A stretch of DNA of 64,000 nucleotides from Leucoraja ocellata (GCA_036785375.1 JAWMAR010000245.1:372001-436000), one strand, 5' to 3'; positions 2,755 through 64,000 are shown, counted from the first letter of the stretch. Numbers and translations: made by a program. The notes: generated by a model from the letters alone, not told the origin.

Positions 2755-2986
2755 GAAACAAGGAACTGCAGATGCTGGTTTACAAAGAAGGACACAAAGT
2801 GCTGGAGTAACTTGGCAGGTCAGGCAGCAAAACATGGATAGGTGATGTTTTGGGTTTGGGAACCTTCTTCAGAGAATAGAATGTAAGAAGTTCTGTCACC
2901 TCTCCGTTGACCCAAACCAAATCGTCACCCATCCAAGTTCTCCACAGATGCTGCCTGACCTGCTGAGTTACTCCAGCACTTTGTGA
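2755..2986. mobile_element. Diverged PLE-derived fold-back element
   Basis: Arms CACAAAGTGCTGGAGTAAC...GGTCAGGCAGCA / TGCTGCCTGACC...GTTACTCCAGCACTTTGTG, with tail GGAACTGCAGATGCTGG on the left. Confidence 0.8.
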
Positions 2987-3437
2987 CTTTTCATTAATAA
3001 ATCCTGTTCCTGGTTCTAAGAGCCATCTAGCCACTTCTCATACAAAAATGCTCTCTCTTAACGCAACAATTTGGCTACTTATTTATAGTCTACATATTGC
3101 CACGTCCTCCATCAATATGCCATCACCTTAATTCCATTAATTCTTCTAAGAAGTGCTTTAATGTCATTTTCGCACCGACTGATAACGTGTCTGAATACTA
3201 TTGGATAAACATTCTCCGGAGAAAGCTCCAGCTCTATCACATATTTTAAGTTCCACAATAATTCTATTTTGTGACAATATATGATTTATATTGCTTGTTA
3301 ATGATTGGAGAATGATTTCAGGATTAGCTTTTGGCCGAGACATCAGCAGAATTCCTTCATTCTTTGTGGGATGTTGAGAGATTGAAAGGCATTGGTGTGC
3401 TGAGGGACTTCACTGCTCTTCCACACACACATCATAG

Positions 3438-3748
3438 GGACGGCACAGTGGCGCAGCTGGTAGAGCTGCTGCCTCACAGCGCCAGAGACCCAGGTTCGAT
3501 CCTGATCTTGGGTGCTGTCTGTGTGGAGTTTGCATGTTCTCTCTGTGACCATGTGGGTTTTCTTTGGCTGCTCGGGTTCCTCCCACATCCCAAAAGCATG
3601 TGGGTTTGTAGGGTAATTAGCATCTGCACAGTTGCCCCCAAATGTGCAGGGATGGATGAGAAAGTGGGAGAACATAGAACCAGTTTGAACAGGTGATGAT
3701 CAATGGTCGGTGTGGACTCTGAGTGTCTATTTACACGCTGCGTCTCCA
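3438..3748 (+). mobile_element. tRNA-derived V-SINE (HE1-like)
   Basis: Pol III A box (GTGGCGCAGCTGG) and B box (GGTTCGATCC), then V-domain GTCTGTGTGGAGTTTGCATGTTCTC...GGTTCCTCCCAC. Confidence 0.85.
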
Positions 3749-3870
3749 ATTGACACACGATCACTAATATTCCCAATGGAGCTGCAGATGCCTGTTTAAA
3801 CCAAAGATAGACACAAAAATAACTCAGTGGGTCAGGCAGTATCTCTGGAGAAAAATAATGTGACGAATTT

Positions 3871-3903
3871 GTCTGAAGAAGGGTCTCGACCTGAAACGTC
3901 ACC
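3871..3903 (+). ncRNA. Minimal type I hammerhead ribozyme motif within PLE-derived element 3778-3922
   Basis: gt-CTGAAGA-AGGGTCTCGACCT-GAAACGTC-ac. Confidence 0.65.
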
Positions 3904-4399
3904 TATTCCTATTCCCCAGAGAATAAAAGATCAGCTGTAGCACTGAATGGCAGAATGACCTCGTTCTGCCTCTGCTTCTCCTGATTTGCCTCTTGCCTCT
4001 TTATTTTTCTTGCAAGATTGAGCTGCTATCCTGTTTGCACAATTACTTCATACGATCCGATATTTCCTGAGTCCTTGGATGATTGACGCTGCTTCAAGGG
4101 TTTGTTTTACTGTGGATTATTTCCGTCAGATTTGAATCTACTGCCATCAGAGTTTAGGTCAGGAATTGTTTTGTCTTTATAACTACAAGACAATTTTCAC
4201 CACAGAGTTGTTCCAACTTTATGACGATGCTGTGCATTGATCCAAATAATAAAATGTGAAACATAAAAAAGTCTTACCACGGCACGCCACGTGTGAATGG
4301 CCAACGTTTTACACAAACAGAGTTACAATTAAAATTGTCTCATCATGGCAGCATTCTGAATTTAAATAATGAAAATAAATTTGCTGATACAATGAAGGT

Positions 4400-4652
4400 G
4401 ATCTGTGGAATTCTCTGGAGTCTGTGAAATGTCTCAGAGAGTGGCGAGTGTGGAATTCTCTGCCTCTGAAGGCAGGTTCTCTGGATGCTTTCAAGAGAGA
4501 GCTAGATAGGGCTCTTAAAAATAGCGGAGTCAGGGGATATGGGGAGAAGGCAGGAACGGGGTACTGATTGGGGATGACCACCCATGATCACATTGAATGG
4601 CGGTGCTGGCTCGAAGGGCCGAATGGCCTACTCCTGCACCTATTGTCTATTG
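4400..4652 (+). mobile_element. CR1 3' fragment
   Basis: Matches 9640-9860, including the CTATTGT tail. Confidence 0.85.
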
Positions 4653-5039
4653 TGAGATAATCCACAGTTTTGACTATAAAAACTAGTTTTGTGTAAGAGG
4701 TATTGAACATGAGGCTAAAATTAATATTTGAGAATAGGTTATTTATGAGAACCAGCAATGGATCCTTTCGCAGCTCTATTGAGATACACATCTGTGCTTT
4801 CAAAATATGGCAGACTGTTTCAGAGTTAGTTTAATTGAAACGTGTAATAAAATTCTAATTTAAGATGTGGCAAAAAAATTTTTTTTTTGTATCTCATGGC
4901 AAATTAAAAAATAATCCTCTGAGATTTCATTCAAAGTGATGTACTGAGGTGTGCTGCTTCAGCTAACAATTCTAACATGACATGATAAAAGCACACCATT
5001 GTTTAGCATTAAATGTAACGTTGAAACTGCAGTGCCTTA

Positions 5040-5406
5040 TAAAGAGAGAGCGAGAGGGGGAGAAAGAGCTGGAGAGAGAGGGGGAGTGAGAGAGGGGAGA
5101 GAGAGGAGAGAGAGCGGAGTGGAAACTGCGGTGGAGCCGCGGGACTGACTACCATCGCCCGGTGTGGTAACAACATATCGCCTCAGCGCAGAGGGAGAAT
5201 GAGGAGGGAAGAGACAGCAACATTAAGACTTTTGCCTCCATCACAGTGAGGAGGTGCCTGGTGAACTCACTGTGGTGGATGTTAATTTGTGTTTATTGTG
5301 TGTTTTGTTGTTTATTATTACATGTATGGCTGCAGGCAACGACATTTCGTTCAGACCTTTCGGTCTGAATGACAAATAAAGGATCTAATCTAATCTAATC
5401 TAATCT
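5040..5406 (+). mobile_element. Unclassified non-autonomous retroposon with (TCTAA)n tail
   Basis: GA-rich head, GC-rich body, GACAAATAAAGG followed by (TCTAA)4; partial similarity to 12630-12895. Confidence 0.55.
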
Positions 5407-5921
5407 GATCTTTTCAATGCAATGTGTAAACATGAATTTAAGAATTTACAGTCATCTTAAAGGATGTATATTTTGAAGAACTCGGTGCAAACAAGCTGAT
5501 ATGCATGCAAACATAAGGCGGCAGTAAGTTGAATTGAACCAACTAATTAGTACAATGGGCTGAATTTACTGGGAAGTACTGGCAGTTCTATACTGAAATG
5601 ACAGGAAGTCAGGATTGAAGTGGTGGTGAACTTGCTGGCTGCCCTTTGCATGGGATTTACTGCCTGTGTTCCAACATTAAGATCGCCACACAGTGCAGTG
5701 CTAAAATGCAAATCCGCTGCAGTTCCTCATTACCGACGCTGGGAAACCTGCCCAATGAACCTTAACACAGCAAAAGTCCATTTATTTTGATAGGGAGGAA
5801 CAGCTGCAAAGAATATTTTTTTGTTTGTGAATTTTAATTGTGTTTTGCAGAGCTGTGCACAAATTCTACATCTGCTCCTTGATATGCTACAAGATTACAA
5901 GGCAGCATTCCATTAGCTTTT

Positions 5922-6192
5922 AAGAAAGAAGTGCAGATGCTGGAAAATTGAAGGTACACAAAAATGCTGGAGAAACTCAGCGGGTGCAGCAGCATCTATG
6001 GAGCGAAGGAAATAGGCAACGTTTCGGGCCGAAACCCGGAAGGGTTTCGGCCCGAAACGTTGCCTATTTCCTTCAGGGTTTCGGCCCGAAACGTTGCCTA
6101 TTTCCTTCAGGGTTTCGGGCCGAAACGTTGCCTATTTCCTTCGCTCCATAGATGCTGCTGCACCCGCTGAGTTTCTCCAGCATTTTTGTGCA
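5922..6192. mobile_element. PLE-derived fold-back element with internal 3 x 34-bp tandem repeat
   Basis: Near-perfect inverted arms. TSD CAT[T/C]CCATTAGCTTTT at 5906-5921 and 6193-6208. Confidence 0.9.
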
Positions 6193-8249
6193 CATCCCAT
6201 TAGCTTTTTCTGATTTATTTTCAGGCGTGCTAATAATTGCTCCACGTAGACCCACTACATTTCTCAGGCCTTCCATTGCTTCTCGGTTTTCAACATTTGC
6301 AAGAAACTCAGTTCTACCCTTTAGAGTCAGTCACACCAGTCTAAATGTGCTGCAGTTTTGTCCATTTGCTTAAATCAATTGGTGTAATTGAATGCTTCTG
6401 CCTTCATTTCATACCATGCTGCCTATCTTTCTTTGACAGTGGTGCCTGGAACTGTGCATCAATCTTATTCCCTTCTTTCCCATCCACCTGATCTTTCCAC
6501 ACCAGGACTGATTTTTTTTTCTTTTTTTTTTTTTGCTCTAATTCCCCCCTTTTTGGTCTTTTCCAAAAGATTCGGACTCCATTTAGAAAGAAAGGTGATG
6601 ACTAACTTTGGTTTAATTTATTTTGGTTTGCCGACACCAACATCTTGTTGCTAAAAGGTGGATATGCAACTCAGGGCTCCTTTTCCCCTCTCTTCCTTTG
6701 GTTAAAAACTTGACCTTGGGAATTTTAATTCTACATATTGATGCAATGAAGAGCCTGTATCCAACCAAGCAGTGACGTTTTGGTATTATATGCCTGAGTG
6801 AATTACGGCAATTTACCATATTAAAAAAACTGGAAAACAGCAGAAAAATATTTAATCTTTTTAATCTTTTAATTAAAACAGAATAATAATATGGAAAGAG
6901 GAGTTGATGTATGACTGAAGGAATGGTGTGGGCCAAATGGCCTCAGAATCCCAAGACATTGGAAGATGCCCTGAGGTATGAGGGATTTATGCAATAATAG
7001 TTTGCATCAACATTGAGACTATTGACCTTGCAGTGTGCTTAAAGAAAGTGAGAGCGTATTGGGCACAATATATCTGTATTCAATTTATTCAAGAAAGACG
7101 AAAAGGACTAATTTCCCCTTCCACAGATGCCTCCTGAACTGCTGAGTGTTTCCAACATCTTCTGTTTTTATTTCACGAAAGAGGATGCTGCTGATGCTTT
7201 AGTAAACAGTCAAGCTATAAGGTAATTGAGTTGGCTAAAGGTGGAGGAAAAGGATCAGGGTAGTTTAAGTTCTGAAATCGAGGCAGTCCAGTCTCATAAG
7301 GTCGGACGTGGATCAGGATTGGCAACAAACAGTGAATGATCAAAGGGAGGCCTTGAAAGAGGAGATCGACGGAGTACAGATTGGAGACATTCTCATAGGA
7401 GAGAGATGGACTTTGACAGAGATCAATGGAAAGAAAGCTTGATGGCAAATTCCAGTTGTGACCTAGTAGAAATCCAAGTTAAATATAAAATAATCCAGGA
7501 AAATATAGAACAAGACATTCATGAATGAATCAATAACACAATGTGGAGAAGGGGGGGGGGACAATTGGGGATCGGGGTGGTCAGACCTGAACACAAAGTT
7601 GCGAGTGATCTTTATATGGAAGCCCCTTCCAGCATGTTATTTTTAAAAATAGTTTTGCCTGGAGAGTGACTACATACCATCGACTTAGTTACTCCCAGGG
7701 CAATGCGATTCCATTTTCTACTTGGGAGTGTAGAATGAAGTTACATAGCCAAGGAGTTAGACAACCGATGAACCGGCCAAATGTCCAGAACAATGTTAAA
7801 CATGACTGTGGCTACCTCCGTGCAATTTATTGATCCCTATTGGATCTCAATGAGCTTGATAAATGCATCGCGGGCTCCAATACCTTCACCTGTACTGTGC
7901 CAGCAGAGGGCAGGGCTGTGGTATTGTACAAGCACGTTGCATCTACCTTCACGGGAAAGGAAAATGAAAATAATAAAACTGTAGATACTGGAAATCTGAC
8001 ACAAAAACAAAGTACTAGAAACACTCAGCAGGACTTTGGAGCTCCAACCTGAAACGTTAACCCTGTTTTCCCCTTCCACAGATGCCCATGAACTGCTGAG
8101 TATTGCCAACAATTTATGTTTTTATTTCACTGATGACGATGCTGTTGATGCACTGGTAAACAATGAAACTGTAAGGTCATAGAAGTGGGTAAAAATAGAT
8201 CATGTCACAGTACAACGATAGGTTTGGCAGAGTCCAAAGTATATAGGCA

Positions 8250-11676: not shown

Positions 11677-11839
11677 TAATTTTACATTGACAGAGGGACA
11701 TTGAAACACTTCACATCAGTAAAATATTTAGCTGAAATGTAATGATTGCGTGTTATACAGATAATTAAATCAGTGACTGTATCTAACGAATGTACCATTA
11801 TTGACACTGCATCTGATAAAATAATAGTCACATGAAACA

Positions 11840-12032
11840 GAAGGTAGACAAATGCTGGAGAAACTCAGCGGGCGAGGCAGCATCTACGGAGCGAAGGAAT
11901 AGGTGACGTTTCGGATCGAGACCCAAAACGTCGCATATTCTTTCGCTCCTTAGATGCTGCCTCACCCGCTGAGTTTCTCCAGCATTTTTATCTACCTTCG
12001 ATTTTTCCAGCATCTGCAGTTCTTTCTTAAAG
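11840..12032. mobile_element. PLE-derived fold-back element
   Basis: Inverted arms, tail on the right. TSD GTCACATGAAACA at 11827-11839 and 12033-12045. Confidence 0.9.
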
Positions 12033-12293
12033 GTCACATGAAACATGTTTCTCTATCTTATCTGGAATATACAACTGCAGCTTGACTTAATTGGTAGCAC
12101 TTTCAAGAGTTCAAATTCCAGTCCAGGGTTTTGCCACATGGTTTAACTGATAAATCAGTACATTTATTGAAACCCATAATGCAGCCGAACAAATGGATTA
12201 AAAATGAAAAGGAATTTTGACCAATTTTGATCGGAAAAATGAAAGGATATTAACGTACAAAGTGAGTACATTCAACTTGGGGGGGGGGGAAAA

Positions 12294-12463
12294 AGGCACA
12301 TAGTTCTTGGGTATCTCAGCGAGTTGGGCAGTATCTCTGGAGAACATGGATTGGCAATGTTTCACGTCGAGACCCTTCCCCACAGATGCTGCCTGACCCG
12401 CTTAGTTACTCCAGCACTTTACGTAATTTATTGTAAACCAGCATCTGCAGTTCCTCGTTTCTA
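12294..12463. mobile_element. Diverged PLE-derived fold-back element
   Basis: GTCGAGACCCTT centre; right arm ends CCAGCATCTGCAGTTCCTCG. Confidence 0.75.
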
Positions 12464-14863
12464 CATTCAACTGGAGTTATTTTGGGAAATAGTCTCTACC
12501 CAGGGTTGAAAGATATCTGTCTGTCATAAAAACATTATACTCTAAGTTAGAGATACACTGATTGCCACTGGGTGATATATCACATGGAGATGCAGGAATC
12601 ATCTGTACAGGGTCCACAACTTAGATAGATAGCGATACTGCGGCCTACACCATCTTGAAGCCACGGTCTCCGGTAGGGAAGCACCGATTCGGGACTCACC
12701 TTGCCTGCACATCTGGCCGCCCGCAGCGGCGACTACGGAGGTTTGTGGTCCCGACCACGTTTGAAAATGGAGAAGGACTGACTGAACTTTGTGCCTTTCA
12801 CCACAGTGATGAATGCTGTAGTGGATGTTTGTGTAAAATTTTTATTGTGTATCATGTGTTTTTTATTGTACCGCTGCTGGCAAATTCATTTAGTACAATG
12901 CAACGCCCTGCATCTCCTAGTTCAATTCCATCTGCCATTCCTATACCTCTTTCCCCACTTCATCTCGATCCTGTTGAAATCTTACAGTATGTCGAATGGT
13001 TTAAAACTATCCAAGGATGGAGGAAGCACAATTCCCCACAGGCTGTTGGACCTGAACCCTGACATTGTGAACAATAACAATAAACACAGGCAGCAAAATC
13101 AGATGAAGTAGATCTCTATTCATTGTAGACATAAGGAACTTCAAATACTGGAATATTGCATAGAGCACAAGAACAGTATCTCAGCTGGTCAGGCAGCATC
13201 TTTGGAGCACATGGTTACATTTTGGGTTGAGAGGCACCTGCATTTATTCCCCCATTTTAGGTCCCTTCTCCATTTACTGTGGTGTATTGCAACATTAGAG
13301 ATGAATGGAACATGCAGCACATGCTGATATTCAAGGAAGATATTTTCCAGGAGGTAAAGCAATAGAAGAAAGTTACAATATTGCCTCGTCCAGTTAAGAG
13401 ATCTCAGTTCATCTTTGAAAAAGCAGAGAAATGGTTAACCACTGAACAAGAGCACGTCAACATTTGCTAAGCATGCAAACCTTCTAGCTATGCGGAAACA
13501 TTTATTTAGATTGTTAAATGCCAAGAGAAGCAATCTGTTCAGAAGAAATTAGCCCGTCTTCTTTTCTCGAAATATCTTTGCAATTAAACTGCAGATTTTG
13601 TTGTTATATGGGAAAGAATCATTAAGATGCAAGCCCATCTACAAGCCTGACATCCAAAACAAAGTTATTAGACAGCAGCCTACTGTTCAACTCCTGGGTT
13701 TTCAAAAGGCAGTTGCAGCAATGAGTTCAGTTCTGTCAATAGCGTTCCAAAATTTAAACCACTATAGAAAAGGCAAGGGACACTTAATACTACAGGAACA
13801 AAACCCTTCTGAATCAGAGACTTCAGGGAACAAACCAACTAGTACTGTTTGCCAACTTGTAGTAATGAGAGTAAAAAAGCATGCAAAAGAGAATACGGAA
13901 TTGAAAAAAAAAAAGTCAGGCAACATCTCTGGAGAACATGGATAGGCAAATGATTCAAGTTGGGACTCTTCTTCAGACTCATTGAGTTATGAAGAAACTG
14001 ACTCTAAATAATATTACCAAATATGAAAAAAATAGAAAATAAGGAATTGTCAGAATTAATTCATGCAGTTGGGAAAAGGATTGGTGGCTAGTAAAATTGA
14101 AACAGTGAACGAATCTCTTTGCAAATAAACTCTGAAGATCATGTGCTCAAATTGAAATGCTTAGAGAAAGGTAGTTGAGCCACCATTTGTAAAGAGAATT
14201 GAGATTTGAGTTGTACAGTACGGTGACACAACCAAAGCAATCCATAGCCTATAAATCACACGATAGAGCAGATTAGTAGACAATTCCAATGCAAACATCA
14301 GCAGAAAAGCAAACCATAACCAAAGCCACCCAAACTACAGCAATCCCAAATTGAAAGAACATCTAATTCCAACAGGAACATGCCATGTTCAAAGAATGAC
14401 TTCGTGGGCAAACCAGATGAAATGATTTTATTTGGTGGAGACTTTGTGCTTATTTAACTATTCACATTGGAGCTTTATCCAGACTTAATATATTGACAAT
14501 GTTCAGCTTTTGAGGTGGGAGATGAATCACTAATGAATTAAAATCTGCTATTCCGATGAATCACAAAATGAACCCTGGTTGACCTAATTAATTGTTTTAT
14601 AAATCCCACTTTGGAGTAAAATTAGCTTTGTAACAAAGACCATATTTCATCGTCCTGAATACTCTGAAGTAGCATGTTGTAAGAGTTGTTGTTGGTGGGG
14701 GGGGGGGCGGGGGGGGATGATTGAATGGTGGAGTGGACTTGATGGGCTAAATGGCTTCATTCTGTTCCTATTTCTTTTGGTCTAAAAATTCTTATGGTCC
14801 TAATTTCTTGCCTTTGATTTTCTTCATTTTAAATAATTATCTCCTCCTGGTTTAAAAGACATT

Positions 14864-16934: not shown

Positions 16935-17170
16935 CAGGTCAAAACATAGTGCTGCAGGAACTCAGTGGGTCAGGCAGCATCTTTGGAAGGAATGGACAGA
17001 TTATCTTTCAGGGTCTTCGGAGAATTCTTCAGACCCTTCTGCGTCTAAAGAGGGGTTCCCAACCTAAACAGTTGCCTCGTCCATTCCTTCCAAAGATGCT
17101 ATCTGACCCACTGAGTTCCTGCAGCACTTTGTTTTGCACAAGATTTCATCATTTGTACTCTCTTGTCTCC
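16935..17170. mobile_element. Diverged PLE-derived fold-back element
   Basis: GTGCTGCAGGAACTCAGTGGGTCAG / CTGACCCACTGAGTTCCTGCAGCAC arms with a decayed hammerhead centre. Confidence 0.75.
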
Positions 17171-19175
17171 ATGATATCAATATCAAATCCCGTAAGAATT
17201 GTCTATGTTTGAATGAGATCACCATTCATTCTTCTAAACTCGAGACCGTATATGCCCAGTCTGTTCAATCTCTCCTTCTGCAAAAAACCTACATCACAGG
17301 GAAAAATAAACTGGTCGTATTTTTTGTCAGTTATATTAGAGCTCCAAAGTGAATCGAAAGTATTAGGGAATAGAACTCTGTATCTACCACCCAACGATCA
17401 GATTACAGCAACTTGGCAGTGACTGAAATATCTTTTTTTTTGTTTTGTTTTGGTCCAGTGTTTAACTGCCAAAGATAATTAAGACTTGCAATATTTTAAT
17501 CACCTTGATGTTTCTTCTATTCCCTTTTCCCTTTGTGAAATTCATTCTCAAGACCACTCAACAATTGTGCAACTCCATTCTGGTTTACTGGCAAGAACTT
17601 TACAGAGAGGACATTTTTTTTCCCAACCATGTCAAAAGCTACAGAGGTCAAATAGGATTAACTCAAATGCCACTTCACCATAATAGTATTGCTGTGAATA
17701 ATCGTTTTATCAACATAGAACAAAATAAGGTGTTTAATTTGGATCAATGGACGAAACATGTAGCATCAACATAGCATATGCATATATCCAGGGAACATTA
17801 TTACGAGGCTGGGAGAGGTATAGATCTTGGTTTTATTGAGCACAAGTTCCTTATGCTTCAAGGACGATGTAGACAAATGGTAGTCATGTTGAACAAAGCA
17901 ATGGATTTATTTAATAGGTCCTCAGTATGAACAGAAGGATTGAATTTTGACTCCAATGTGGCTCAGTGCCCAATTGGCTTCCCCACGTGGAGACTGGCAG
18001 AGGGGGAAAAGTCTAATGGAGAACCATTAGAGTGATTCATGGTTTACTGCAATTCTCAGATATGATCAAGGACCTTGTCTTATTTACTTCTGAGTGCATA
18101 GATTTTAAAAAAATCCACGAGAGTCCATAAAATAATTAAAGGGCTGGATAGTTCCTAGTTTCACATTTATTCCAGTTTAACAGACAGGGAAGGAGTAGAA
18201 GGTGGTTCAAACCAAGTATGAATAAGTATAGACTTGATGTGAGACAATGCATGGAAGTATTTTCTATAGAATTAAGAGTTACTGGAATACGTTGTCTGCT
18301 GTGATTAGTAACCACATCTTGCTCGTCTTCAAGAGGAACCTGGCCCGGTTCCTGACTGGAGCAGAGATTCGACCCTCAGAAGGTAAGAGTTTTTATAGGT
18401 ACCATTTGATTTCAATCACTTGAGTGGATTAAAGAGTACTTTTTTTTTTCAGCAAACTTTCCCTCATTGATCCTGAAACTTTAAAATGTACTAAAAATCA
18501 TGTGTGTTTTAGAAGTGAACCCGGGGTGGGGGGAGGGAGGGCTGAGGGAAGAGGCATGTCGTCTTGAGGGTTCTGTGGCCATGAATTTGTGTAGACTTGA
18601 TAGAACAATTAGCCTTTCCCTTCTTAATAATTCTGCATGTTCAGCATAATACCAGAGTGGTGTTTACTTATCGTGCAGTGTGGAAAGCATGACTACGCAG
18701 ACTTTAATCTAACATTCAGGTCTTGAAGTTTAAGCATTACACTGGCTGCTGTTAATACAAGGTCAGGTTTGAACCCTTTCATTTCCCTCATTAATAAGAA
18801 GATGGATAATTTCCAAGAATCTAATTTTATCTCACTATATCTTTTTTTAGACCTAATTACGTATCATGTCTTTTATATGAAGTGCCACGGATGGTTCTGT
18901 CTGACTACCTCTCTTACCCTTGTATATGATCCTCCCTCTCCATATGTCTCACTTTGTTCCCTTCAGGCCTGACTTGTTCTGTATGTCTAGATACGTTGCT
19001 GGTTACTTGACACTCCCAGCTGTCAAATATTAAGAATAGAATTCAGCACTATTCCCAATCCTCATGTGAAAAGTAGAGAATGGCAGAAAAGGATGGGTGT
19101 AATCTAGACTCCAATCACCAATGAAAGTTCTCTCATTGTAGTTTTTCTTACCTTGTGCAGTTCAGTCTTCAATGT

Positions 19176-19371
19176 GTAGGAAGGAACTGCAGATGCTGGT
19201 TTTAACTGAACTGACACAAAAGGCTGGAGTAACGCGGTGGGTCAGACAGCACCTCTAACAATACGGAATGGGTGACGTTTTGGGTCGAGACCCTTCTTTC
19301 TGAAATTCACCCATTCCTTTTCTACAGAGATGTTGTCTGACCCGCAGAGTTACTCTCTCTTTGTGCATATC
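19176..19371. mobile_element. PLE-derived fold-back element
   Basis: TSD TTCAGTCTTCAATGT at 19161-19175 and 19372-19386; diverged arms. Confidence 0.85.
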
Positions 19372-19799
19372 TTCAGTCTTCAATGTTTTTGATTTTCAAA
19401 AAAGAGCCATTTAAATCAAATAGGTTTCCAGTGCTCTATTAATATAGATTCATGGAAAAATCCAACCTACATTTAGCAGCATAAATCATTATGATTTGTG
19501 GTTGTCAAAAGCAGTGCTGTCTTTAATTGGATCCATGCATTTCCCCCCACCTTCCTCTTGAGGGTTAAACCCTTTGTAATGCCCAGTTTGGGAATGTCTG
19601 CAGAAACTGTACGGAGCCCTACAGATTTCTCCACAGATTCCTGCTACTATCGCCATTTTTGACTGCTTCCTTTCAAATTGCAGTATTAACTCTACAGAGG
19701 AATTATGTGACTGACAAAACAGTTGTGCAGCACAAACTAATCTAGAGCATGAACAGAATCGTCATATTTAATCTGTATCTGCATGAAGTGGTTTCCATC

Positions 19800-19922
19800 A
19801 CAATGCTGGAATGACTCAGCGGGTCAGGCAGCATCTTGTGAGAACATGGTAAAATCTAAAGGCAATCCATGATCTCGAGAAATCCTGCCTGACTCGCTGA
19901 GTTACTCCAGCATTTCGTGTCT
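19800..19922. mobile_element. Short PLE-derived fold-back element
   Basis: AATGCTGGAATGACTCAGCGGGTCAGGCAG / CTGCCTGACTCGCTGAGTTACTCCAGCATT. Confidence 0.75.
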
Positions 19923-44214: not shown

Positions 44215-44522
44215 TTACTTGAAATTGGGGAATTCAGTGCTCAAAGCTACCTGATGAGTTCTTCCAGTTTGCATAGGGTCTCACTCTGGCAATGGAGGAG
44301 GCCCAGGACAGAAAGGTTCTTATTGGGAAAGGGAAGGGAAGCTAAAATGGTTAACGATCATTCCAGCAGGCCTTGAAGGATTGAGTATAAATGTTTGGCA
44401 AAATGGTTGCTTTGTTAATTAACATTTGCTCTCGCTGATGTAAAGGCCATATCTTGAGCACCAAATGCAATGGACAAGGCTGGAAGAGGTGCACATCAAC
44501 CTCTATCTCACCTGGAAGGGCT
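44215..44522 (-). mobile_element. Degenerate Penelope-like GIY-YIG fragment
   Basis: Nucleotide similarity to 40440-40690 (e.g. ATGGAGGAGGCCCAGGACAGA vs ATGGAGGAGACCCAGGACAGA). Minus strand reads FQVR..CTSSSLVHCIWCSR.GLYI, the PLE CxxC-YIG region, with stops and frameshifts. Confidence 0.75.
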
Positions 44523-45961: not shown

Positions 45962-46132
45962 AAGACACAAAATGCTGGAGTAACTCAGAGGGGACAGACA
46001 GATTCTGAAGAAGGGTCTCCACCCGAAACGCCACCCTTCTTCCTTCTTCCCATAGATGCTGCCTGTACCGCCGAGTTACTCCAGCATTTTTGTGTCTATC
46101 TTCGGTGTAAACCAGCATCTGCAGTTCCTTCT
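45962..46132. mobile_element. PLE-derived fold-back element
   Basis: GACACAAAATGCTGGAGTAACTC / GAGTTACTCCAGCATTTTTGTGTC arms; CTGAAGAAGGGTCTCCACCCGAAACGCC centre. Confidence 0.8.
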
Positions 46133-46208
46133 TGCACTGGCCGGAGTTACAGGAGGCGGTGGTGATGGGGGGGGGGGGGGAGGGAGGCGAGGGAACATGA
46201 ATACATAC

Positions 46209-46428
46209 AAGGTTACACAGAAAAGCTGGAGAAACTCAGCGGGTGCAGCAGCATCTATGGAGCGAAGGAAATAGGCAACGTTTCGGGCCGAAACCCTTCT
46301 TCAGATGCTGTGCAGATTCAGAGGCAGATTCAGATTCAGATTCCATAGATGCTGCTGCACCCGCTGAGTTTCTCCAGCTTTTCTGTGTAACCTACGATTC
46401 TCCAGCATCTGCAGTTCCCTCTTTAACA
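46209..46428. mobile_element. PLE-derived fold-back element with (CAGATT)n-like spacer
   Basis: TSD ATGAATACATACAAGGT at 46197-46213 and 46429-46445 (overlaps the arm end); identical arms. Confidence 0.9.
46274..46305 (-). ncRNA. Minimal hammerhead motif
   Basis: Minus strand CTGAAGA-A-GGGTTTCGGCCC-GAAACGTT-gcc. Confidence 0.6.
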
Positions 46429-47559
46429 ATGAATACATACAAGGTCCTTTGCAAGGAAGGTGTGAGCGTTGTGACGATTTGCTGGCAGAAGGCGCCAGGC
46501 TATTTCCGAAATGTCGCTGCATAATAATACGAAGCCATCGAGAGCAGTCTGCGGCCCGCACTTTGATCATCTCGGCTCCCTTCTCAGGGGTGGGTGGGTG
46601 CCCACCTATCTCCCTGTGGAAGTCATGTAATTTAATGTCTGCAGAGTCCGCTGCTGCACTGGCGCTCGGTGCAAGTCAACGCGAAGGCTCTGTGGGGGTG
46701 GGGGGAGGAGGAGGAGGACCACAGTCTGGTCTGCTTCCTTTGGTGAATATTGAGGGAACACCCCACAAACTAGGAAAGGGAAATCACCCCAGGGGCCACA
46801 TGAGGGGCAAGAGTGTTTTGTGTAAAGCCAGGTGTTAACACTTTTGACTATGACACTATTGAATGTATAGATCTCAAATTTGTATGAAGAGTTTATTTAC
46901 AGTATTTGGTTTGTACATATTTTTATCATTCTAAATTAAATTCATTTTTTTAATGAAAAAAACCCCCGGAAAAGTAATGACCCCACAAAAGCTCAATCGC
47001 TCAAAAAGTTTACCTTTTCCAAATTAATTCATTGTCGGCTAATGGTTTACAGATGTCTCTGGCATTTCAAATGTGAATCTGCGTGCACCATGTAGTATAA
47101 ATATAGTTTAATACGTTTCAAAACTACTGTTGGACTCTTGGCTGTTTCCCTTTCGACCATTTAGTTGCCCCCCCCCCCCCCCCCCCACAAGTTTATTGAC
47201 GACAAATTTCTATTGAGTCTGTTGAACGGTTCAACAGATGGGAATGCGCTTTCCTTGGGCTGGCTGTGGCATGCTGGTACATCATCTACCAGCCCCCGGG
47301 ACGCCGTGTTTGTACAGCCCACGATCTGTATCCATTTGGTGTTTGGTTAACACTGGTGGTGGGGCACGCTCTGGGCGTGGTGTTGGCTGCTTCACCGGCC
47401 AGGCGTCTCCCCCTCTTCTCCACTCCACCACATTGATACATTCCGCCTTTTTTTTGTTATCGAATAGAGTTTCTGGGAGGGGGGGGGGGGGCACACACAA
47501 AACGGACAATGGAGCAACAACGTTCGTTTCTCTTTCAACGTGTAAACACACTTTCAGAC

Positions 47560-49022: not shown

Positions 49023-51149
49023 GTGAGACTTTCCACTGCGGTCGGTGCATGACAAAAGGAAGTTTCTATGAAACAGAGGTTTAGCACGCAAGTGTTAGAT
49101 CCGTTTTGTTCGTCCCCTTTGAACAAAAGTGCAGCCGAACCCTTTTCTCTGGAAGCGCGACCCTGTGAGTCATTAGTCCTTGTCGTCTAGGGCTATAGTA
49201 AGGTGTCGCCTCGATTCATTGTCCCTGGCTTTTTTTGAAATTCAATTATCCATTCACAGGGTTTCGAGAAATCCGGGAGTAGATTGATGTTACCGACACG
49301 CAGTGTAATAAATGAAGGTGTCAGTCAGGGGGCTGGGGGGAGAGATGAGCCCAATTCCATGTACAGAGCAGATGGATTGGCCACAGTTCCAGGGCACCTC
49401 TATTCTTTCCACCGCTTCCTTAGTTTAGCCGCTTCTATCTGGTTCTTGGAGGGGGGGGGGGGGGGGGGGAGGGTGCTTTTGTTTACAGTGTGTGTGTGTG
49501 TGTCCACCTCAGATGTCTTGTCACGTCAGCAAAGTCATTCATTAAAAAAAAGTGACGGCTGGGAAAACGCTGTATCCAAGTTCGTTCGTTCATCTTGGAA
49601 GAATGTTTGCTTGCCCACACAGTTATACTAGAGGCCAGCCAAGATCTGTGCACCTGCACTTCGCTCACCAATACCAACCCCACCCCCCACCCCCTCCCCG
49701 TTGTGCGTTTTGTAGATGTTGAAAATGCCCATTATTTAGTATGAATTTGTCCCCGCTGATTTGCAGGAGTGGCATTCAAAATATAATTGAATACCCCCTC
49801 GATAAAAAAAACCCAGAGGAGACTGCAGATGCTGGCATCCCGTGTAGAACACAGCGTTGGAGTTGCTCAGACTAACCCGCTGAGACACTCCAGCACGTTT
49901 GTGTTCGACCCGATAAAATAACATGGTTTAGCTTGTTTTTCAGAAGAACTGATAAACAGAAACGTGAGTTTCATCACATGGGATTAACGTTTGGAATAAA
50001 AATAGATGCACGACGCAAGTGTATTTCAATAAGATTAAATTAAAATATAAGTTATCTCTTTACCTTAAGTGACGTTAAAGTAACAGCGTCGTATTTGCCT
50101 ATTAAACTCTAATAGTTACAATGACTAAATATCCCCTCTTAAATTATCCACTTGGTGGGGGTATTACTTCTAGTGCTTTACTTTCTCATCTCCTGGAACG
50201 ACTCTGGGGCATGGATGTTTACAAATAGAAAGTGTGATATTTCTTAAAAGGTAAGGATGGGGCAACAGATGGTATAGGCACCATAACATAGACATGGCAG
50301 GACCATTCACAAACTGTGGACTGTTTTCCCTTGTATTTGTAATATATTAAGAAGCTTTTCAATAGTCCAATTGTTTGCCTTTCTTTGTCTTTCTTGGGCT
50401 TATAAAGTTAGCTGCCTGCAATGTTTTGAAGTTCAATTAAACATGTTTTTACTAAGCATCATTTTTCATTTTGGGCTGACCTGCCTTTTATGTGTAAAAA
50501 TAATACTTAATGTTCCACTTATTACCATTTTTTGAGGAAGCTTCATAATACAGATACTAATGGAATTGAATCTTCAATATGTACAGTGAAGTTTAACATA
50601 TTCAAATATAGAACGCATCATTAAATGGACTGAAGAATTCTGCTTGTACTGAATATTTGCTGATTTAAACTTTCAGCAATCAATACTTCTTTGTGAATAC
50701 CCTTAACTATTTAATGTCTACCCCTAATAAAATGTTGTTTATTGGTTACTTTTGCCATTTTATAACTGACCTTCAAATCCATTAGCTATTTCAAATCTCA
50801 CAATCGCCAATCGCAAATACTATTCCCTTATATATATTCCTGCTTTAATTATGGTTTATCTTTTTTGTATTTGGGGGGAATGAGTCAGTGATCATAATTC
50901 TTCACTTTAATTGATATAGAGTGAAAATAAAAATGAGATAGTTTGAATGAGTGTCAAAATCAACAGATTTTCAGATACAGTCACCATTGCCTTGGATGTG
51001 GAAATGACCCAACCCCCCCCCCCCTCCCCCAACTAGGAACATAAAACAGTACAGCGCTGGAACAGGCCCTTTGGCCCACATTATTAATGCAAATTAACAT
51101 CAAATATTACAACTAGAATGATAAGTGAATATTTTGCATTGGTATTTAT

Positions 51150-53005: not shown

Positions 53006-53052
53006 TCGGGCAGGCTTTTACACTGACTATACTTTCTTTTGTCCTTTTTCAG

Positions 53053-53728: not shown

Positions 53729-54572
53729 GCCATCACAATATTTATTTTAATATATCTTTGAATATTTATTTGTTTATTCACCCACCTATTGACCACTCAA
53801 CCATTCACTTTTAGTTTGGTTTTTAATATTGCATTTTCACAGTTGTACTTTGGAATTGTGAGTAGTTTTAATTATTGCTCTTTTAAGCTTTAATAATTTA
53901 TGTACATAAAGATGAACATTTACCACCTATATTTTCTATGAGATTCTTAAATGTTAATCAGATTGAAATTTCATCATTCTATCTATTTTCCCTGCTGGAA
54001 TCTCAGAGAATAATTTGTATATGCGTCATATTATTTTATGATGGGTTTCTAGACTATCTGAAAGTAAATGTATTGGGAATGAGATTTGATTTGCAATTTC
54101 TATTCTGAAATCTGTTGGAAAAACAAGCAAAAAAAAATCTCCTCCTGGGATTGCATTGTTTGGGACATTTATCAGGCAATAATAAAGAAAGTTTGTAAAG
54201 GGTTTCAGCGAATGGAGAAGTGTATTAGTTCTCTGGGCTGAGTCATTATTAATATGACTGTTGGACCCAGTGATCGAGTGCTTGCAGGTTCCTGCTGAAA
54301 TTAATTTGTTCCTGTTTTGACTTCTGTGGGCTTCTCTCTGGCCTTACTTCACATCTGCTTCGACAGGCAAGAGTCCTGACAACTTAATAACATTAAAAAA
54401 GACTGCAGATCCTGTCCCCTCTCCCATCAGGCAAAAGGTATAGAAGTGTGATTTGGGGGGGATTCCCAGCTGTTATTAGGCAACTTTGAGTCATCCTGCC
54501 ACAACCAGAGAGCAGTGCTGAACTACTACCTACCTCTTTGGTGATCTTCGGACTATCCTTGATAGGACTTTG

Positions 54573-54776
54573 TGTTCAAGAAGGAACTGCAGATGCTGGA
54601 AAATCGAAGGTACAGAAAATTGCTGGAGAAACTCAGCGGGTGCAGCAGCATCTAGGAGCGAAGGAAATAGGCAACGTTTCGGGTCTGAAGAAGGGTTTCG
54701 GCCCGAAACGTTGCCTATTTCCTTTGCTCCTAGATGCTGCTGCACCCGCTGAGTTTCTCCAGCAATTTTGTGTACC
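54573..54776. mobile_element. PLE-derived fold-back element in the last WNT5B intron, nested in a Rex1-like tail
   Basis: TSD CCTTGATAGGACTTTG at 54557-54572 and 54775-54790. Confidence 0.9.
54682..54715 (+). ncRNA. Minimal hammerhead motif, sense to the WNT5B pre-mRNA
   Basis: ggt-CTGAAGA-A-GGGTTTCGGCCC-GAAACGTT-gcc at the apex of a fold-back element. Confidence 0.65.
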
Positions 54777-55229
54777 TTGATAGGACTTTGCTGGCTTTAC
54801 CTTGCACTAAACGTTATTCCCATATCATGTATCTACACACTGCAATTGGCTCGATTACAATCATGTATTGTCTTTCTGCTGACTGGATAGCACACGACAA
54901 AAGCTCTTCACCGTGGTACACGTGACAATAAACTAAACTGTAAATCCAAAATAAAAGCAGAAAATGCTGGAAACACTCAGTTGGTCCGGCCACATCATAG
55001 GAAGAGAAACAGAGTTACTATTTCATGTTGAAGATCCTTTGTCATAACAGTCTTCAGATAGATTGTGATTATATGATAGTAGTATAAAAAGATAAGAACA
55101 TAGGTAAAAATAAATCTATAATAATGGGCTGGATCCCATTTACTCCATGCACTCAGCATGTGATCTACTGTTAAATTTTACCTATTAATCTTTGTCCCAT
55201 GCCAGTTCCTAAGCCATCTCATAATTACT

Positions 55230-55640: not shown

Positions 55641-56289
55641 CATGAACATATACTACGTTGTGTAACTGTCTTGCCACCAATCCAAGCTGGATTCTGCCCC
55701 AAAAACCTCTGAGTCTCTGACATATTTTGTGGGCTCAATGTTACTTTAAATGCATTTCTACCTGAAGCAAGTTACACAAGTGCAAGCTGTTATTGAACAA
55801 CTCCTATCTGCAGAGGACAGCAACAGGTGTGTTTCTTGTGTTGTGTGGTAAGATATCCAAGGGCTGCCTGTGTAGGTCTACATGTCACCACCTTCATGCT
55901 CAGATCATGGAAATTAGCCCAAAACCAAACCTAGGATTTCTCAGCAATTCTGTATAGCACCATATCCTGAACTTGAATAAAAATATATTTCTTATCGAGT
56001 GCACGCTACTTTTTATTTTGTCTTAAATTACTTGAAATTTGCTGCTTTATTTTTCTCCTACAATTTTTCGTTCCTTGTTCTCTCTTGATGGTGCGAGTCT
56101 GTTTCTGACTGTGTCTCTCACCAATTATGCAATTATACTCTAACATCATTTGTTTCATTAGCAATCGGGACCATGAATCCTAATCCTTAGGCTCTCTCTG
56201 CCACCCATAGAAATAGAGTGTAACTAATTTTGCACCTGGAATTAATAGATCTGTTGGGCGTTATTCATAACTGGGCATTGACATATCTT

Positions 56290-56477
56290 GTTTAAGAGGG
56301 AACTGCAGATGCTGGAGAATCGAAGGTTACACAAAAAAGCTGGAGAAACTCAGCGGGTGCAGCAGCATCTATGGAGCGAAGGAAATAGGCAACGTTTCGG
56401 GCCGAAACGTTGCCTATTTCCTTCGCTCCATAGATGCTGCTGCACCCGCTGAGTTTCTCCAGCTTTTTTGTGTAACC
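56290..56477. mobile_element. PLE-derived perfect palindrome in the last WNT5B intron
   Basis: 76-bp perfect arms at 56325-56400 and 56402-56477. TSD CATTGACATATCTT at 56276-56289 and 56477-56490. Confidence 0.92.
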
Positions 56478-56541
56478 ATTGACATATCTTACTTGTTTCA
56501 TGAAATCAATTTCTAAAGGTGGTTTTGTCCTTTTATTCCAG

Positions 56542-58814: not shown

Positions 58815-59482
58815 ATGTGGTCACTAAAGCCCTGTATAATTGTAATAAGAAATATTTGCTTTTAGTGACCAGGATAATTGAACCTCAGATCCCTTTTCCC
58901 AACAACATATCTCAATCTATCGAAATAATGTTACTGCTTTCTTTTTTTTTGCAAAGTCGACTTATCCATATTATATTAGATCTGTATATGCTCACAATTG
59001 TCTTCAAGTCTCGATATCATCCTCAAAACTCCAGCAAGTTAAATGTTAGTTGGCAAATGTCACCTTTCATCCATCCATCCATCCAATCTTTGGATGTGTA
59101 TTGTGAATCACTGGCACCAGGCACTCACTCCCCCTGTGGTAACCTACTGCCACCCTGAAAGGAATCATTTATTCCTACTGTTTCTTGTCTGTCAACCAAT
59201 TTTCAATCCCTGCCAGTATATTACACCCAATCCCATGTGCAATCATTATGCAATCTAACATGTGGAAGTTTATCAAAAGCTGTCTAAAAATCCAAATACA
59301 TCACAATAATTGGGTTTTCCTCTCTACCAATACATCGCCAAAAACTCCAGTAAGTTTGTCAAACACGATTTTCCTTTCATAAATCAATGTGGACTTTGTC
59401 TAACTCTGATGGGTTTTTTTTAATGTCCAGTTATAATATCCTTGATAATCACATTGTAAATGTCTTTGGTCGTTGTGGACTC

Positions 59483-59615
59483 GGTCTGAAGAAGGGTCTC
59501 GATCCGAAACATTACCTATTTCCTTCGCTCCATGAATGCTGCCTCACCCGCTGAGTTTCTGCAGCATTTTTGTCTACCTTCGATTTTTCCAGCATCTGCA
59601 GTTCCTTCTTAAACA
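59483..59615 (+). mobile_element. PLE terminal repeat, single long arm starting at the hammerhead motif
   Basis: GGTCTGAAGAAGGGTCTCGATCCGAAACATTACC...CCAGCATCTGCAGTTCCTTCTTAAAC. Confidence 0.8.
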
Positions 59616-61607: not shown

Positions 61608-61790
61608 TGAGTCTGTGGAATTCTCTGCCTCAGAGGGCAGTGGAGGCCGGTTCTCTGGATGCTTTCAAGAGAGAGCTAGATAGGGCTCTTAAAAATAGCA
61701 GAGTCGGGGGATACGGGGGGAGGCAGAACAGGGACATGATCAGCCATGATCACATTGAATGGCCTACTCCTGTACCTATTGTCTATTGTC
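61608..61790 (+). mobile_element. CR1 3' fragment nested in a degenerate V-SINE (about 61480-61870)
   Basis: SLWNSLPQRAVEAGSLDAFKRELDRAL and a (CTATTGT)2 tail; SINE sequence resumes after it. Confidence 0.8.
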
Positions 61791-61910
61791 TGAGCAGGTT
61801 GGTAGGTAAATTGGACACTAAATTACCCGTTGTATGGGTGGGTGGTGAAATCTGAAGCAAGTTGCTGGTAAGGGAGAAGAATAAAATGGAGTAAGTGGAG
61901 GATTGATGCC

Positions 61911-62418
61911 TGAACATTGTCCGGGAACATTGCCATCTGGTTTGGGAATTGCTCTGCCAAGGACAAGAAGGCTCTGCAGAGAGTAGGGCGTTCGGCTGAA
62001 CGCACTATGGGAATTTCACTCGCCCCCCCTGCAGGAACTATACAACAGGAGGTGCAACTCCAGAGCAAATAAAATCATGGGAGACCCCTTCCACCCCTGC
62101 AACGGACTGTTCCAGCTGCTACGGTCAGGCAAACGCCTCCGTTGCCATGCGGTGAGAACGGAGAGGTTGAGAAGGAGTTTCTTCCCAGAGGCAATTCGGA
62201 CTGTAAACGCCTATCTCACCAGGGACTAACTCTACAGAACGTTTTTCCTTCCATTATTTATTATGTAAAAGAATATGTGTGTTATGATTGTGTTTATAAT
62301 TTGTTTGGTTGTTTTGTTGTTTGTCTTTTGCACAAAAGTCCGCGAGCATTGCTACTTTCATTTCACTGCACATCTCGTATGTGTATGTGACAAATAAACT
62401 TGACTTGACTTGACTTGA
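61911..62418 (+). mobile_element. Rex1/Babar LINE 3' end
   Basis: IWFGNCSAKDKKALQRV...HPCNGLFQLLRSGKRLR...RLRRSFFPEAIRTVN; tail AATAAAC(TTGAC)n. Confidence 0.85.
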
Positions 62419-63279
62419 TGATCGATGCAGATTCAGAGACATGAAGGGCTCAATATCACCAATTTTATGTTTCAATGTTTGGATTTGTATGTGGTCTTTT
62501 AAAAAACTTTCTTCCCTAAAGGTGATGGAATATTGAGAAAATGTAATCTTGGTCATCTGTGCTAAACATGCATGAAAGTTGTACCTACTCCATATTAGAA
62601 ATTCAGTATTAGCGTTTTGAAATGGAAATTTTGGGAGTGAAACATAAAATACATGTGTTACTGTATTGCATGTTCAGCATGTGTTATACATATAGCGTGA
62701 GATGCACATTCTGCGTAACTGCTTGTTTTCACATGTTAAGCTTGTTCTTTAACAACTGTGTTACCAGCTTTGAAGCAATTGATTACCTTTTGCTAGTTTT
62801 CTACTTCGTAAATAGATGACTTCTCAACAGCTAGTTGTCAAATTCCACAGCATAGATTTCACTCCCTCAGAAACAAAGTTTTTTATCTGCATAATTCAGC
62901 AGACTCTCCAGTGTAAACTAATTTTCCCCCTCTCTGTCTCCGCGAAGAAACTCCCTCTCTGTGGCCTTTCATCTGCCTGTGAGTAAAATATTTAAATTAA
63001 ATCTTGCAACAAGTGATTGATAAATGCATGCATCTGTCATGGTGCAGATAAGCCCTCCTCCTCCTCATCATCATTCCCCCAGTTTAAAACTACAGCTTGA
63101 AAACTACAGGCAATCTGATATCTGGAACAGCTGAGAAAGTGGGAGAAATGCTCCGTTAGCTATCTTCCTTGCACATGCCCCTTGAATGGCCATTGGAGGA
63201 GGGCAATGAGAAGGAAAGGCAGCTGTGCGCAAATCCAACTGTAGCTAGAGGCAGCAATTCATTCAGCTGCAAGTGTTAT

Positions 63280-63515
63280 AGTGGCACAGCTAGTGGAACC
63301 GCTGCCTCGTAGTGCCAGAGACCTGGGTTTGATCCTGACCTCAGGTTCTGTCTATGTGGGGTTTGCATGTTCTCCCTGTGACCACATGGGTTTCTTGCGG
63401 GAGCTCCAGTTTCCTCCCGTATCCCAAGGGCGTGTGAGTTTGTAGATTATTTGGTCGCTGTAAATTGCTCCTTGTGTGTAAGGAGTGGATCAGAAAGTGC
63501 GATGATGTAGAACTA
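63280..63515 (+). mobile_element. V-SINE (HE1-like), diverged
   Basis: A/B box remnants and V-domain, similar to 3438-3748. Confidence 0.8.
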
Positions 63516-63621
63516 GCTGATTAGTTTATTACCAAAGAACGAACAGTGAAAAGCTTTTTAGTTGCGTGCTATCCAGTCAGCCTAAGGATTATACTTTGTG
63601 TCAATATTAATAAATACAGTG

Positions 63622-63808
63622 TTTAAGAAGGAACTGCAGATGCTGGAAAATCGAAGGTACACAAAAATGCTGGAGAAACTCAGCGGGTGCAGCAGCATCT
63701 ATGGAGCGAAGGAAATAGGCAACGTTTCGTCCCGAAACGTTGCCTATTTCCTTCTCTCCATAGATGCTGCTGCACCCGCTGAGTTTCTCCAACATTTTTG
63801 TGTACCTT
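63622..63808. mobile_element. PLE-derived fold-back element
   Basis: Near-perfect arms (2 mismatches seen). TSD TTAATAAATACAGTG at 63607-63621 and 63808-63822. Confidence 0.9.
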
Positions 63809-64000
63809 TAATAAATACAGTGCTCTTCAAACAGTTACAATAAATTCAGTCAACGCTTCTTCTTGCGTATGGCATGCAAAGCCTAAAGTTGTAGGACAAC
63901 TTGTTCTATTTGATCTTATGTGGTGGTGAACGCTGAGTTGAATTCTTTTCATCGAAACAGGGCGCGGATTACGTAAAGGTTGCAATCTCCCACCCCATTC

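Follow-up and report, generated by a model that had tools for sequence, protein, structure and literature searches.

Hammerhead-bearing copies in the 64-kb window

The window analyzed here is a 64-kb stretch of the Leucoraja ocellata genome (GCA_036785375.1 JAWMAR010000245.1:372001-436000), and all counts given below refer to this single window. Host genes are represented by an F-box/leucine-rich open reading frame (ORF) at 28.3-29.5 kb and by three Wnt exons at 48.7, 53.0 and 56.5 kb. In addition, the window contains two remnants of a GIY-YIG endonuclease gene and a family of short, frequently inverted copies of a sequence with a minimal type I hammerhead ribozyme motif, which we assign to the terminal repeats (pLTRs) of a Penelope-like element (PLE). 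A blastn comparison with 8 slices of the window resulted in 26 loci, and a profile derived from 19 of the arms in the window found 46 matches in 28 loci and none in the reversed window. The 28 loci comprise 48-278 bp each and 4179 bp in total, which is 6.5% of the window or one locus per ~2.3 kb and agrees with the spacing of about 2.5 kb given in a preliminary description of this DNA. About 25 related elements of 100-270 bp had been reported there, the best preserved of them with two inverted arms. The family is real, but the two-armed design applies to only 15 of the 28 loci; 12 are single-armed and one is complex (45118..45248, rearranged into three short pieces in the orientations -, + and -).

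Positions within the copies are numbered from C3 of the hammerhead (+1), with predicted cleavage directly after +28. An inverted-repeat search detected arm pairs at all seven loci emphasized in the preliminary description (5922, 11840, 19176, 46209, 54573, 56290 and 63622), which also bear the labels 5918, 11837, 19175, 46199, 54574, 56288 and 63620, respectively. The labels 12304, 23621, 7977 and 49820 denote 12267..12472, 23603..23668, 7972..8125 and 49800..49918.

Arm ends and target site duplications

The ends of the arms, the duplications and the junctions can be read directly from the window. Short arms have their outer ends at about +91 to +96 and long arms at about +124 to +130, and the interval of 31-38 nt constitutes the tail. 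In all 15 pairs the arms are oriented head-to-head; the single tail-to-tail abutment, at 45180/45215, belongs to the complex locus 45118. One tail was present at 13 of the 15 two-armed loci, none at two, and two tails at no locus. When 3778, whose second arm is cut, is set aside, the excess of one-tailed loci (12 out of 14) has a probability of 0.006 under an independent 50:50 choice.

Target site duplications (TSDs) of 16 (with 1 mismatch), 13, 15, 17, 16, 14 and 15 bp flank the seven emphasized loci in the order listed above; the best score of random flank pairs was 9 in 393 trials. Hence, the earlier account of these seven loci, with inverted arms of which one is longer at its outer end and TSDs of 13-17 bp, was confirmed. 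When the search was widened, TSDs also emerged at 12304 (11 bp) and 23621 (12 bp), with a null frequency of 1/1000 at a score of at least 11; the remaining 17 of the 26 family loci covered by it yielded no significant TSD. TSDs range from 11 to 17 bp. A or T accounts for 87 of their 129 bases as compared to a background of 59%, and no clear motif indicating a target preference was found in them.

Single arms end at either of the two outer positions. Tails are present at 13124 (13124..13232, (-) strand, decayed), 33603 (33603..33755, (+) strand, with an upstream extension of ~40 nt and an internal deletion), 35205 (35205..35337, (+) strand, diverged) and 59481 (59481..59615, (+) strand, a full arm from the core at 59486 to the tail end at +129). 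The inner site forms the end of 22511 (22511..22680, (-) strand, ending at +93, with a complete core at 22608 as well as an upstream stretch of ~70 nt), of 22873 (22873..22968, (-) strand, spanning core to inner site) and of 23621 (23603..23668, (+) strand), a 42-bp insert at 23615-23656 between its 12-bp TSDs (23603-23614/23657-23668). The diverged single arms at 7119..7166 ((+) strand) and 54945..55066 ((-) strand) probably end there as well. Further single arms are located at 13915..13987 ((-) strand, with a core, 3' part gone), 40762..40869 ((-) strand, core at 40866, end near +104) and 41690..41758 ((-) strand, a fragment).

Junctions of the two-armed loci

Inner ends differ at every locus, and not one identical junction was found among the 15. 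Inner ends at 3778, 11837, 19175, 45962, 49820, 56288 and 63620 were read by eye. Among the young loci, 5918 (5906..6208, TSD 5906-5921/6193-6208) combines a tailed (-) arm reaching +9 with a short (+) arm from +6. Its short arm contains three tandem copies of a 34-nt hammerhead segment (+8..+41, window 6041-6142), whose ends coincide with a self-complementary pair, which suggests repeated re-priming. Locus 46199 (46197..46445, TSD 46197-46213/46429-46445) has a short (-) arm with a whole core (46304) and its inner end at 0, and a tailed (+) arm from +44. At 54574 (54557..54790, TSD 54557-54572/54775-54790) the tailed (-) arm runs to about +18 and the short (+) arm, with a whole core (54685), to -1. 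The loci 56288 (56276..56490, TSD 56276-56289/56477-56490) and 63620 (63607..63822, TSD 63607-63621/63808-63822) are near-perfect palindromes with the same centre, a 7-bp quasi-palindrome of stem II/GAAAC. They carry different subfamily variants, however, and their loops are most simply derived from opposite arms, the tailed arm at 56288 and the short arm at 63620.

Self-complementary sequence is also found at other junctions. At 11837 (11827..12045, TSD 11827-11839/12033-12045) the short (-) arm (+9..+96), which is the source of the loop, and the tailed (+) arm from +17 are joined via a 4-nt self-complementarity of stem II. At 12304 (TSD 12267-12277/12462-12472) the short (-) arm from about +6 and the tailed (+) arm from about +38 overlap by 5 nt at another self-complementary pair; between its TSD and short arm lies a G/A run (12278-12292), perhaps due to priming slippage or later expansion. 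Filler of 9-34 nt occurs at several junctions. The filler of ~31 nt at 46199 (46311-46341) is composed of short repeated units resembling nearby sequence, which we would liken to the templated insertions of end-joining repair.

The other two-armed loci include the old locus 2755..2990, with a tailed (-) arm at 2757-2872 reaching +1, 34 nt of filler, a short (+) arm at 2907-2988 and no TSD detected in the search; 3778..3922, with a tailed (-) arm and a (+) arm that retains a whole core at 3873 and is cut off at about +50; and 7977, diverged, with a tailed (-) arm from +62 and a short (+) arm from +13. At the old locus 16936..17135 both arms reach +1, neither is tailed, and 12 nt of filler separate them. 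The tail is likewise absent from 19796..19921, also old, where arms from about +33 and +41 flank 18 nt of filler. A short (-) arm from about +56 and a tailed (+) arm with a core at 46005 form 45962..46137, and 49820 is a diverged small pair in a Wnt intron with an 8-bp flanking repeat that is not significant. Locus 19175 (19161..19386, tailed (-) arm from +4) retains a perfect 15-bp TSD (19161-19175/19372-19386) despite an arm divergence of 26%, which may reflect chance, two different templates or raised mutation of the arms.

In at least five loci (11837, 12304, 46199, 54574 and 7977) the arms are non-nested: the short arm contains 5' sequence that is absent from the tailed arm. Since the tailed arm in turn has the tail, neither arm can be a copy of the other at these loci. 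Both arms of young loci match closely, with a divergence of 0-2.6%, and a subfamily variant was common to both arms in 5 out of 5 young loci. The probability of this concordance is ~0.005, calculated by hand for independent draws from three variants, the number observed among 7 young loci. At 54574 a 1-nt deletion is common to both arms and absent from every other young arm examined. Ongoing homogenization of the arms was rejected as a general rule because the arms of older loci differ by 11-27%. At the inner start, target and RNA share 1-5 nt. This microhomology adds up to 13 nt over 6 correctly placed junctions, or 14 nt over all 8 if 11837 and 19175, which were misplaced by the script, are included; the null mean was 2.5 nt, and 2 of 20000 trials were as extreme.

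The hammerhead motif

A descriptor of the minimal type I hammerhead matched the window 8 times and none of 100 Markov shuffles, and we consider the motif as such to be real on the basis of its sequence. The core boxes, helix II, an extra base after A9, G10.1-C11.1, a palindromic helix III and a UH cleavage site are all present. Helix III is palindromic in 6 of the 8 matches, and helix I comprises 2 bp in 6 of the 8. Over 14 copies, helix II is 96% paired with one two-sided change, and helix I is 56% paired. Rfam output consisted only of sub-threshold hairpin families, including microRNA families, below the gathering score. By single-strand folding the minimum-energy fold of the monomer was not predicted to be a hammerhead, and RNAalifold gave no consensus structure for the copies.

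Downstream, an 8-bp stem of +49..+56 with the tail is 96-97% paired, without covariation above shuffles; it remains a lead for a putative structural element. In 7 of 8 tailed arms examined (e.g. 56290-56408 and 63622-63729), two copies of the motif CCAGC are spaced 27-31 nt apart, and each of the two ends is preceded by one of them. Either copy is complementary to about +51..+56, so that two alternative stems would be possible; covariation support for them is absent.

The preliminary description placed the inversion in or beside the hammerhead. It lies inside the motif at 6 of the 7 emphasized loci, but at 46209 the long arm starts only at +44, after the filler. A whole core was retained in only 2 of the 14 arms of these loci (46304 and 54685). 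The elements are built around the hammerhead only in the sense that it marks the position of the junction; it is not a function retained by the copies.

Link to a Penelope-like element

The segment 40352..40696 on the (-) strand comprises the C-terminal end of a GIY-YIG endonuclease gene, 85 codons at 40442-40696 without an internal stop, and a 3' untranslated region (UTR). The Pfam GIY-YIG match of this frame is weak (E=0.057), and the frame shares 48-85% identity with 23 longer relatives. The best of these are proteins of Leucoraja erinacea (85%) and the whale shark (65%), followed by more shark and ray proteins, which would by itself make a skate or ray the probable host. The whale-shark relative carries a PLE-type reverse transcriptase (RT), linker and GIY-YIG domain, and an RT is present in the relatives P0003, P0007 and P0020. 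Behind the GIY-YIG stop, the 3' UTR matches the 5' extension of copy 22511 over 47 nt (87%, E 5e-10). This was the best non-self piece of the window, and none of 1000 shuffles came near. The overlap yields the order endonuclease - 3' UTR - hammerhead - arm - tail, which is that of the 3' pLTR of a PLE, and copies 22511 and 33603 both extend into PLE 3' UTR sequence. Hence, judged from sequence, the mini-copies are almost certainly the pLTRs of an endonuclease-encoding PLE, as had been assumed.

A second GIY-YIG remnant (44259..44559, (-) strand) is decayed by stops and frameshifts, and no adjoining hammerhead arm was found at it. This remnant, at 44.4 kb, preserves the CxxC of the CCHH cysteines between the GIY and YIG boxes, as do 101 of 106 testable relatives, while the 40.6-kb remnant begins just after this position. 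The CX2-5CxxC linker was found in 65 of the 106 testable relatives, including the closely related chondrichthyan P0002, P0003, P0026, P0027 and P0029, and is absent in P0001 (a chimeric gene model) and P0024; in the window this region is not preserved. Such a linker before the endonuclease is given as a mark of the Neptune and Nematis clades (PMC8557442). By its relatives, the source PLE may be of Neptune/Nematis type. A tblastn search with 205 relatives matched only the two endonuclease pieces and no RT remnant in the window, and in the search for ORF-start remnants the N-terminus of no relative, few of which are full length, matched the arms. ORFs at 35907-36258 were ruled out as GIY-YIG by a Pfam search. 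Directly 5' of the first remnant, at 40696-40711 and in opposite orientation, 6 nt of arm sequence are followed by 10 nt that match the tail exactly. This may be what is left of an inverted arm, in which case the locus would be the canonical long version of this structure.

Proposed origin by two priming events

We propose that the mini-loci are separate aborted PLE insertions in which only the pLTR was copied, two cDNAs being primed from both target strands and then joined. We assign this reading a probability of about three in four. That each locus stems from an independent insertion appears highly probable, and two priming events per two-armed locus are likely. The idea that both events used one RNA is more tentative, with slightly less than even odds, and the same holds for a coupled use of the two start sites, in which a protein dimer on one RNA would prime one target strand per site.

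The PLE protein would nick both target strands 11-17 nt apart, giving rise to the TSD. Each 3'-OH would then prime reverse transcription internally on uncleaved PLE RNA, at an outer (about +124..+130) or an inner (about +91..+96) site, and the stretch between the two would form the tail; priming at these sites is deduced from the two end positions. Both cDNAs would be antisense and grow towards each other, which could cause the head-to-head arms and the one-sided tail seen in the window. After about 40-135 nt they would come to a halt, in most cases within the hammerhead or immediately 5' of it, and be joined. As antisense strands can pair only at self-complementary sequence, the ribozyme hairpins may supply the joining points, with filler DNA introduced otherwise by a repair route that we infer. 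Loss of one cDNA would leave a single arm. If the two start sites are used in a coupled way, the two CCAGC copies could serve as the two binding sites. The hammerhead itself would be a passenger: its cleavage is not needed, and a transcript of the palindrome would bury the motif in a hairpin of 71-104 bp. Double priming would account for the orientation, the one-sided tail, the TSD, the non-nested arms, the solo arms at either site and the junctions at hairpins. The preliminary description had already suggested ultra-truncated retrotransposition products, which our data support.

Antisense self-priming has been proposed for rotifer PLE palindromes (PMC3846280), and a corresponding fold-back origin would involve a single cDNA or antisense RNA that snaps back on the hammerhead hairpin, copies itself and stops ~33 nt short, with later deletions scrambling the centres. 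The near-perfect palindrome at 56290, whose 1-nt loop is assigned to the tailed arm, the tiny loops at self-complementary hammerhead sequence at 63622 and 11840, and the close similarity and common variants of young arms would all be in line with it. At 11837, however, the loop is in the orientation of the short arm, which would then have been made first although it offers no tail for copying; fold-back could produce neither this locus nor 23621. The extra 5' sequence in the short arm of at least five loci would have to be explained by later deletions, which fold-back would need for most loci, and the filler at several loci also argues against it. Moreover, the solo inner-site insert 23621 with its own TSD needs no fold-back, and this mechanism offers no reason for a stop at a site where solos also start. 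We therefore regard fold-back, the name given to the elements in the preliminary description, as an unlikely mechanism, given that arms are often non-nested and the inner site also primes alone. A non-autonomous, ribozyme-bearing derivative of the pLTR, similar to retrozymes or short interspersed elements, could instead spread as a palindromic unit or provide short pLTR-only RNAs as templates for double priming. Such pLTR-derived elements have been proposed for vertebrates (bioRxiv 10.64898/2026.07.22.740005) and Chlamydomonas, and in the window mini-copies far exceed ORF remnants (28 loci versus 2). Furthermore, 13 of the 46 profile matches start between -10 and +2 and only 3 extend further upstream, as from a fixed RNA 5' end, although this pile-up could also reflect a stall at a C-rich tract or a lack of upstream references. 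Amplification as a unit predicts common junctions, and the proposed check for identical ones found none common to any two of the 15 loci. Of the 14 arms of the emphasized loci, 12 have lost part of the core, and 22511 and 33603 continue into the PLE 3' UTR. Head-to-tail arrays of whole units, which define retrozymes, are missing; the sole tandem is the 34-nt triplication, which lacks the CUGA box. A short source RNA would alter the template and not the two-primer mechanism. Overall, we consider such a derivative improbable for this window.

There are two further rival readings. If ribozyme cleavage set the arm ends, the clustering of junctions in the ribozyme would be explained, and a lizard PLE hammerhead is described as cleaving in the presence of protein (PMC11167929). 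Nevertheless, 22 of the 30 arms of two-armed loci (hand count) reach 5' of the predicted cut, and none was seen to begin at +29. Helix I of just 2 bp and the predicted monomer fold also speak against cleavage, and catalytic mutants left the in vitro insertion of the lizard PLE unchanged (PMC11167929), which makes this possibility very doubtful. MITEs (miniature transposable elements with inverted repeats) of DNA transposons are likewise short, palindromic, abundant and flanked by duplications. Here, the TSD length varies and is not fixed as for a MITE, the ends are asymmetric by the tail, 12 of the 28 loci are single arms, and the sequence runs into the UTR of the GIY-YIG ORF. The window provides a contrasting element at 52219-52514, an unrelated palindrome whose 49-nt terminal inverted repeats are symmetric and which is flanked by a repeat of 3 bp (TAA on each side); it looks like a PIF/Harbinger-type MITE. 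An origin of the hammerhead-bearing copies as MITEs is hardly credible.

Several observations weigh against double priming or limit its support. Later asymmetric deletions in the centres of palindromes could also yield non-nested arms, at locus 56290 the tailed arm could simply have folded back, and the concordance of arms could be due to gene conversion or to the activity of a single source element at any given time. The lizard PLE, a member of the Poseidon clade, is reported to show in vitro neither a strand difference in the start site nor target homology (PMC11167929). A significant TSD was retained at only 9 of the 27 family loci searched, 7119 being outside the search. The link to the ORF consists of one 47-nt overlap of pyrimidine-rich sequence stitched from two separate loci, and the window holds no full-length element, RT remnant or empty allele. 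Helix II covariation over 14 copies did not exceed shuffles, and the Rfam search gave no hammerhead match at E<=1. Finally, the numbers are small and derive from one 64-kb window.

Other features of the window

The F-box/leucine-rich repeat gene occupies a single exon at 28333-29793 on the (-) strand and is presumably FBXL14-like. The three Wnt exons lie within 48725-57000 on the (+) strand, in a gene that we assume to be Wnt5-like. Intronic copies in the Wnt gene are 49820, 54574, 54945 and 56290, and only ~65 nt separate the end of the latter's 187-bp palindrome from the splice acceptor of the final Wnt exon (window 56290-56541). Segments at 9405-9770, 34320-34450 and 55225-55560 read like 3' ends of long interspersed elements, presumably of the CR1 type; a Pfam search of the 9405-9770 fragment gave no match. 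A diverged minimal hammerhead core without the 3' part (34287..34319, (+) strand, core at 34289) abuts the second of these segments. An assembly gap of 150 N is located at 23852-24001.

Comparison with known systems

The inverted pLTR, the one-sided tail and the TSD have already been described for PLEs (PMC3846280, PMC8557442; also PMC2377424). Insertions of endonuclease-positive PLEs resemble the window loci in the head-to-head inverted pLTR, the one-sided tail of 30-40 bp, the variable TSD, the pLTR hammerhead and the strong 5' truncation (PMC3846280, PMC8557442). They differ in that the window inserts consist almost only of two pLTR stubs, 186-271 bp between TSDs, at one per 2.3 kb, and in the TSD length of 11-17 bp compared to 8-10 bp in the rotifer examples (PMC3846280, PMC8557442). 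Short insertions are not restricted to the window, as de novo PLE insertions in Chlamydomonas have a median of 128 bp (PMC9977147). The inversion has been ascribed to antisense self-priming and the tail to resolution by the endonuclease (PMC3846280, PMC8557442), while the origin of inverted copies and one-sided tails is called undefined in PMC8557442. If true, a coupled twin priming, of which the palindrome with its one-sided tail would be the fossil, would explain the long-unexplained inverted Penelope pLTRs without antisense self-priming. The window insertions are shorter than 300 bp and retain both ends together with junction and TSD, so that each documents one event completely, and their value is that of a compact natural archive in which the origin of PLE inversions can be tested. 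If the density of the window holds, the genome would be a very large natural read-out of the reaction, with long intronic hairpins as a by-product. The copies are also a likely source of mis-annotation: they make up several percent of the window, resemble MITEs or microRNA hairpins, and form long hairpins in Wnt introns.

A close biochemical parallel is the Poseidon element PAc of Anolis carolinensis, for which both target strands were cut and extended in vitro, two internal RT start sites bracket a tail of 30-40 nt, RNA that is not cleaved serves as the main template and dimerization is predicted (PMC11167929). Its AC-rich outer start lies ~120 nt from the hammerhead C3 by our own count on the printed RNA, as compared to +124..+130 in the window, and the palindromic helix III is the same (PMC11167929). 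In the printed RNA a short motif, identified by eye, is repeated 34 nt apart (PMC11167929). PAc belongs to the Poseidon clade, whereas relatives of the window endonuclease carry the Neptune/Nematis linker. The later insertion steps are left open by the in vitro study, and the accessible part of its discussion contains neither inverted copies nor a coupling of site to strand (PMC11167929).

The motif shares with the minimal type I hammerheads of metazoan PLEs the CUGANGA core, the extra base before helix II, G10.1-C11.1 and the palindromic 15.2-16.2 without loop 3 (PMC4209133). Helices II and I have 4 and 2 bp in the window versus 7-8 and 4-5 bp in the Schistosoma families, and a helix I of 2 bp also occurs in Drosophila virilis (PMC4209133). 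Pairs of hammerheads on opposite strands, 100-700 bp apart, were reported for Schistosoma in 2014, and the sections consulted make no mention of cartilaginous fish (PMC4209133). Animal non-LTR retrozymes are similarly non-coding, pLTR-related and equipped with a type I hammerhead, and were present in the single chondrichthyan sampled (PMC7229834, bioRxiv 10.64898/2026.07.22.740005). Retrozymes form head-to-tail tandems with whole ribozymes; in contrast, the pairs in the window are head-to-head, most of their ribozymes are truncated and their junctions are unique.

The window loci are neither a new ribozyme class nor a new kind of element. We found no published account of this miniature family or of PLE double priming in a literature search outside Dfam/Repbase and most subscription papers, to which passages of PMC5753468 and PMC6431247 contributed nothing further, and the family may already be deposited in repeat libraries. 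A conceptually related process is twin priming of L1, in which the second target strand acts as a primer at an internal position of the RNA, resulting in an inverted 5' segment. There, the inverted part lies upstream of the direct part, without duplication and without a fixed start. In the window, the same 60-100 nt were copied into both arms, starting from two fixed sites.

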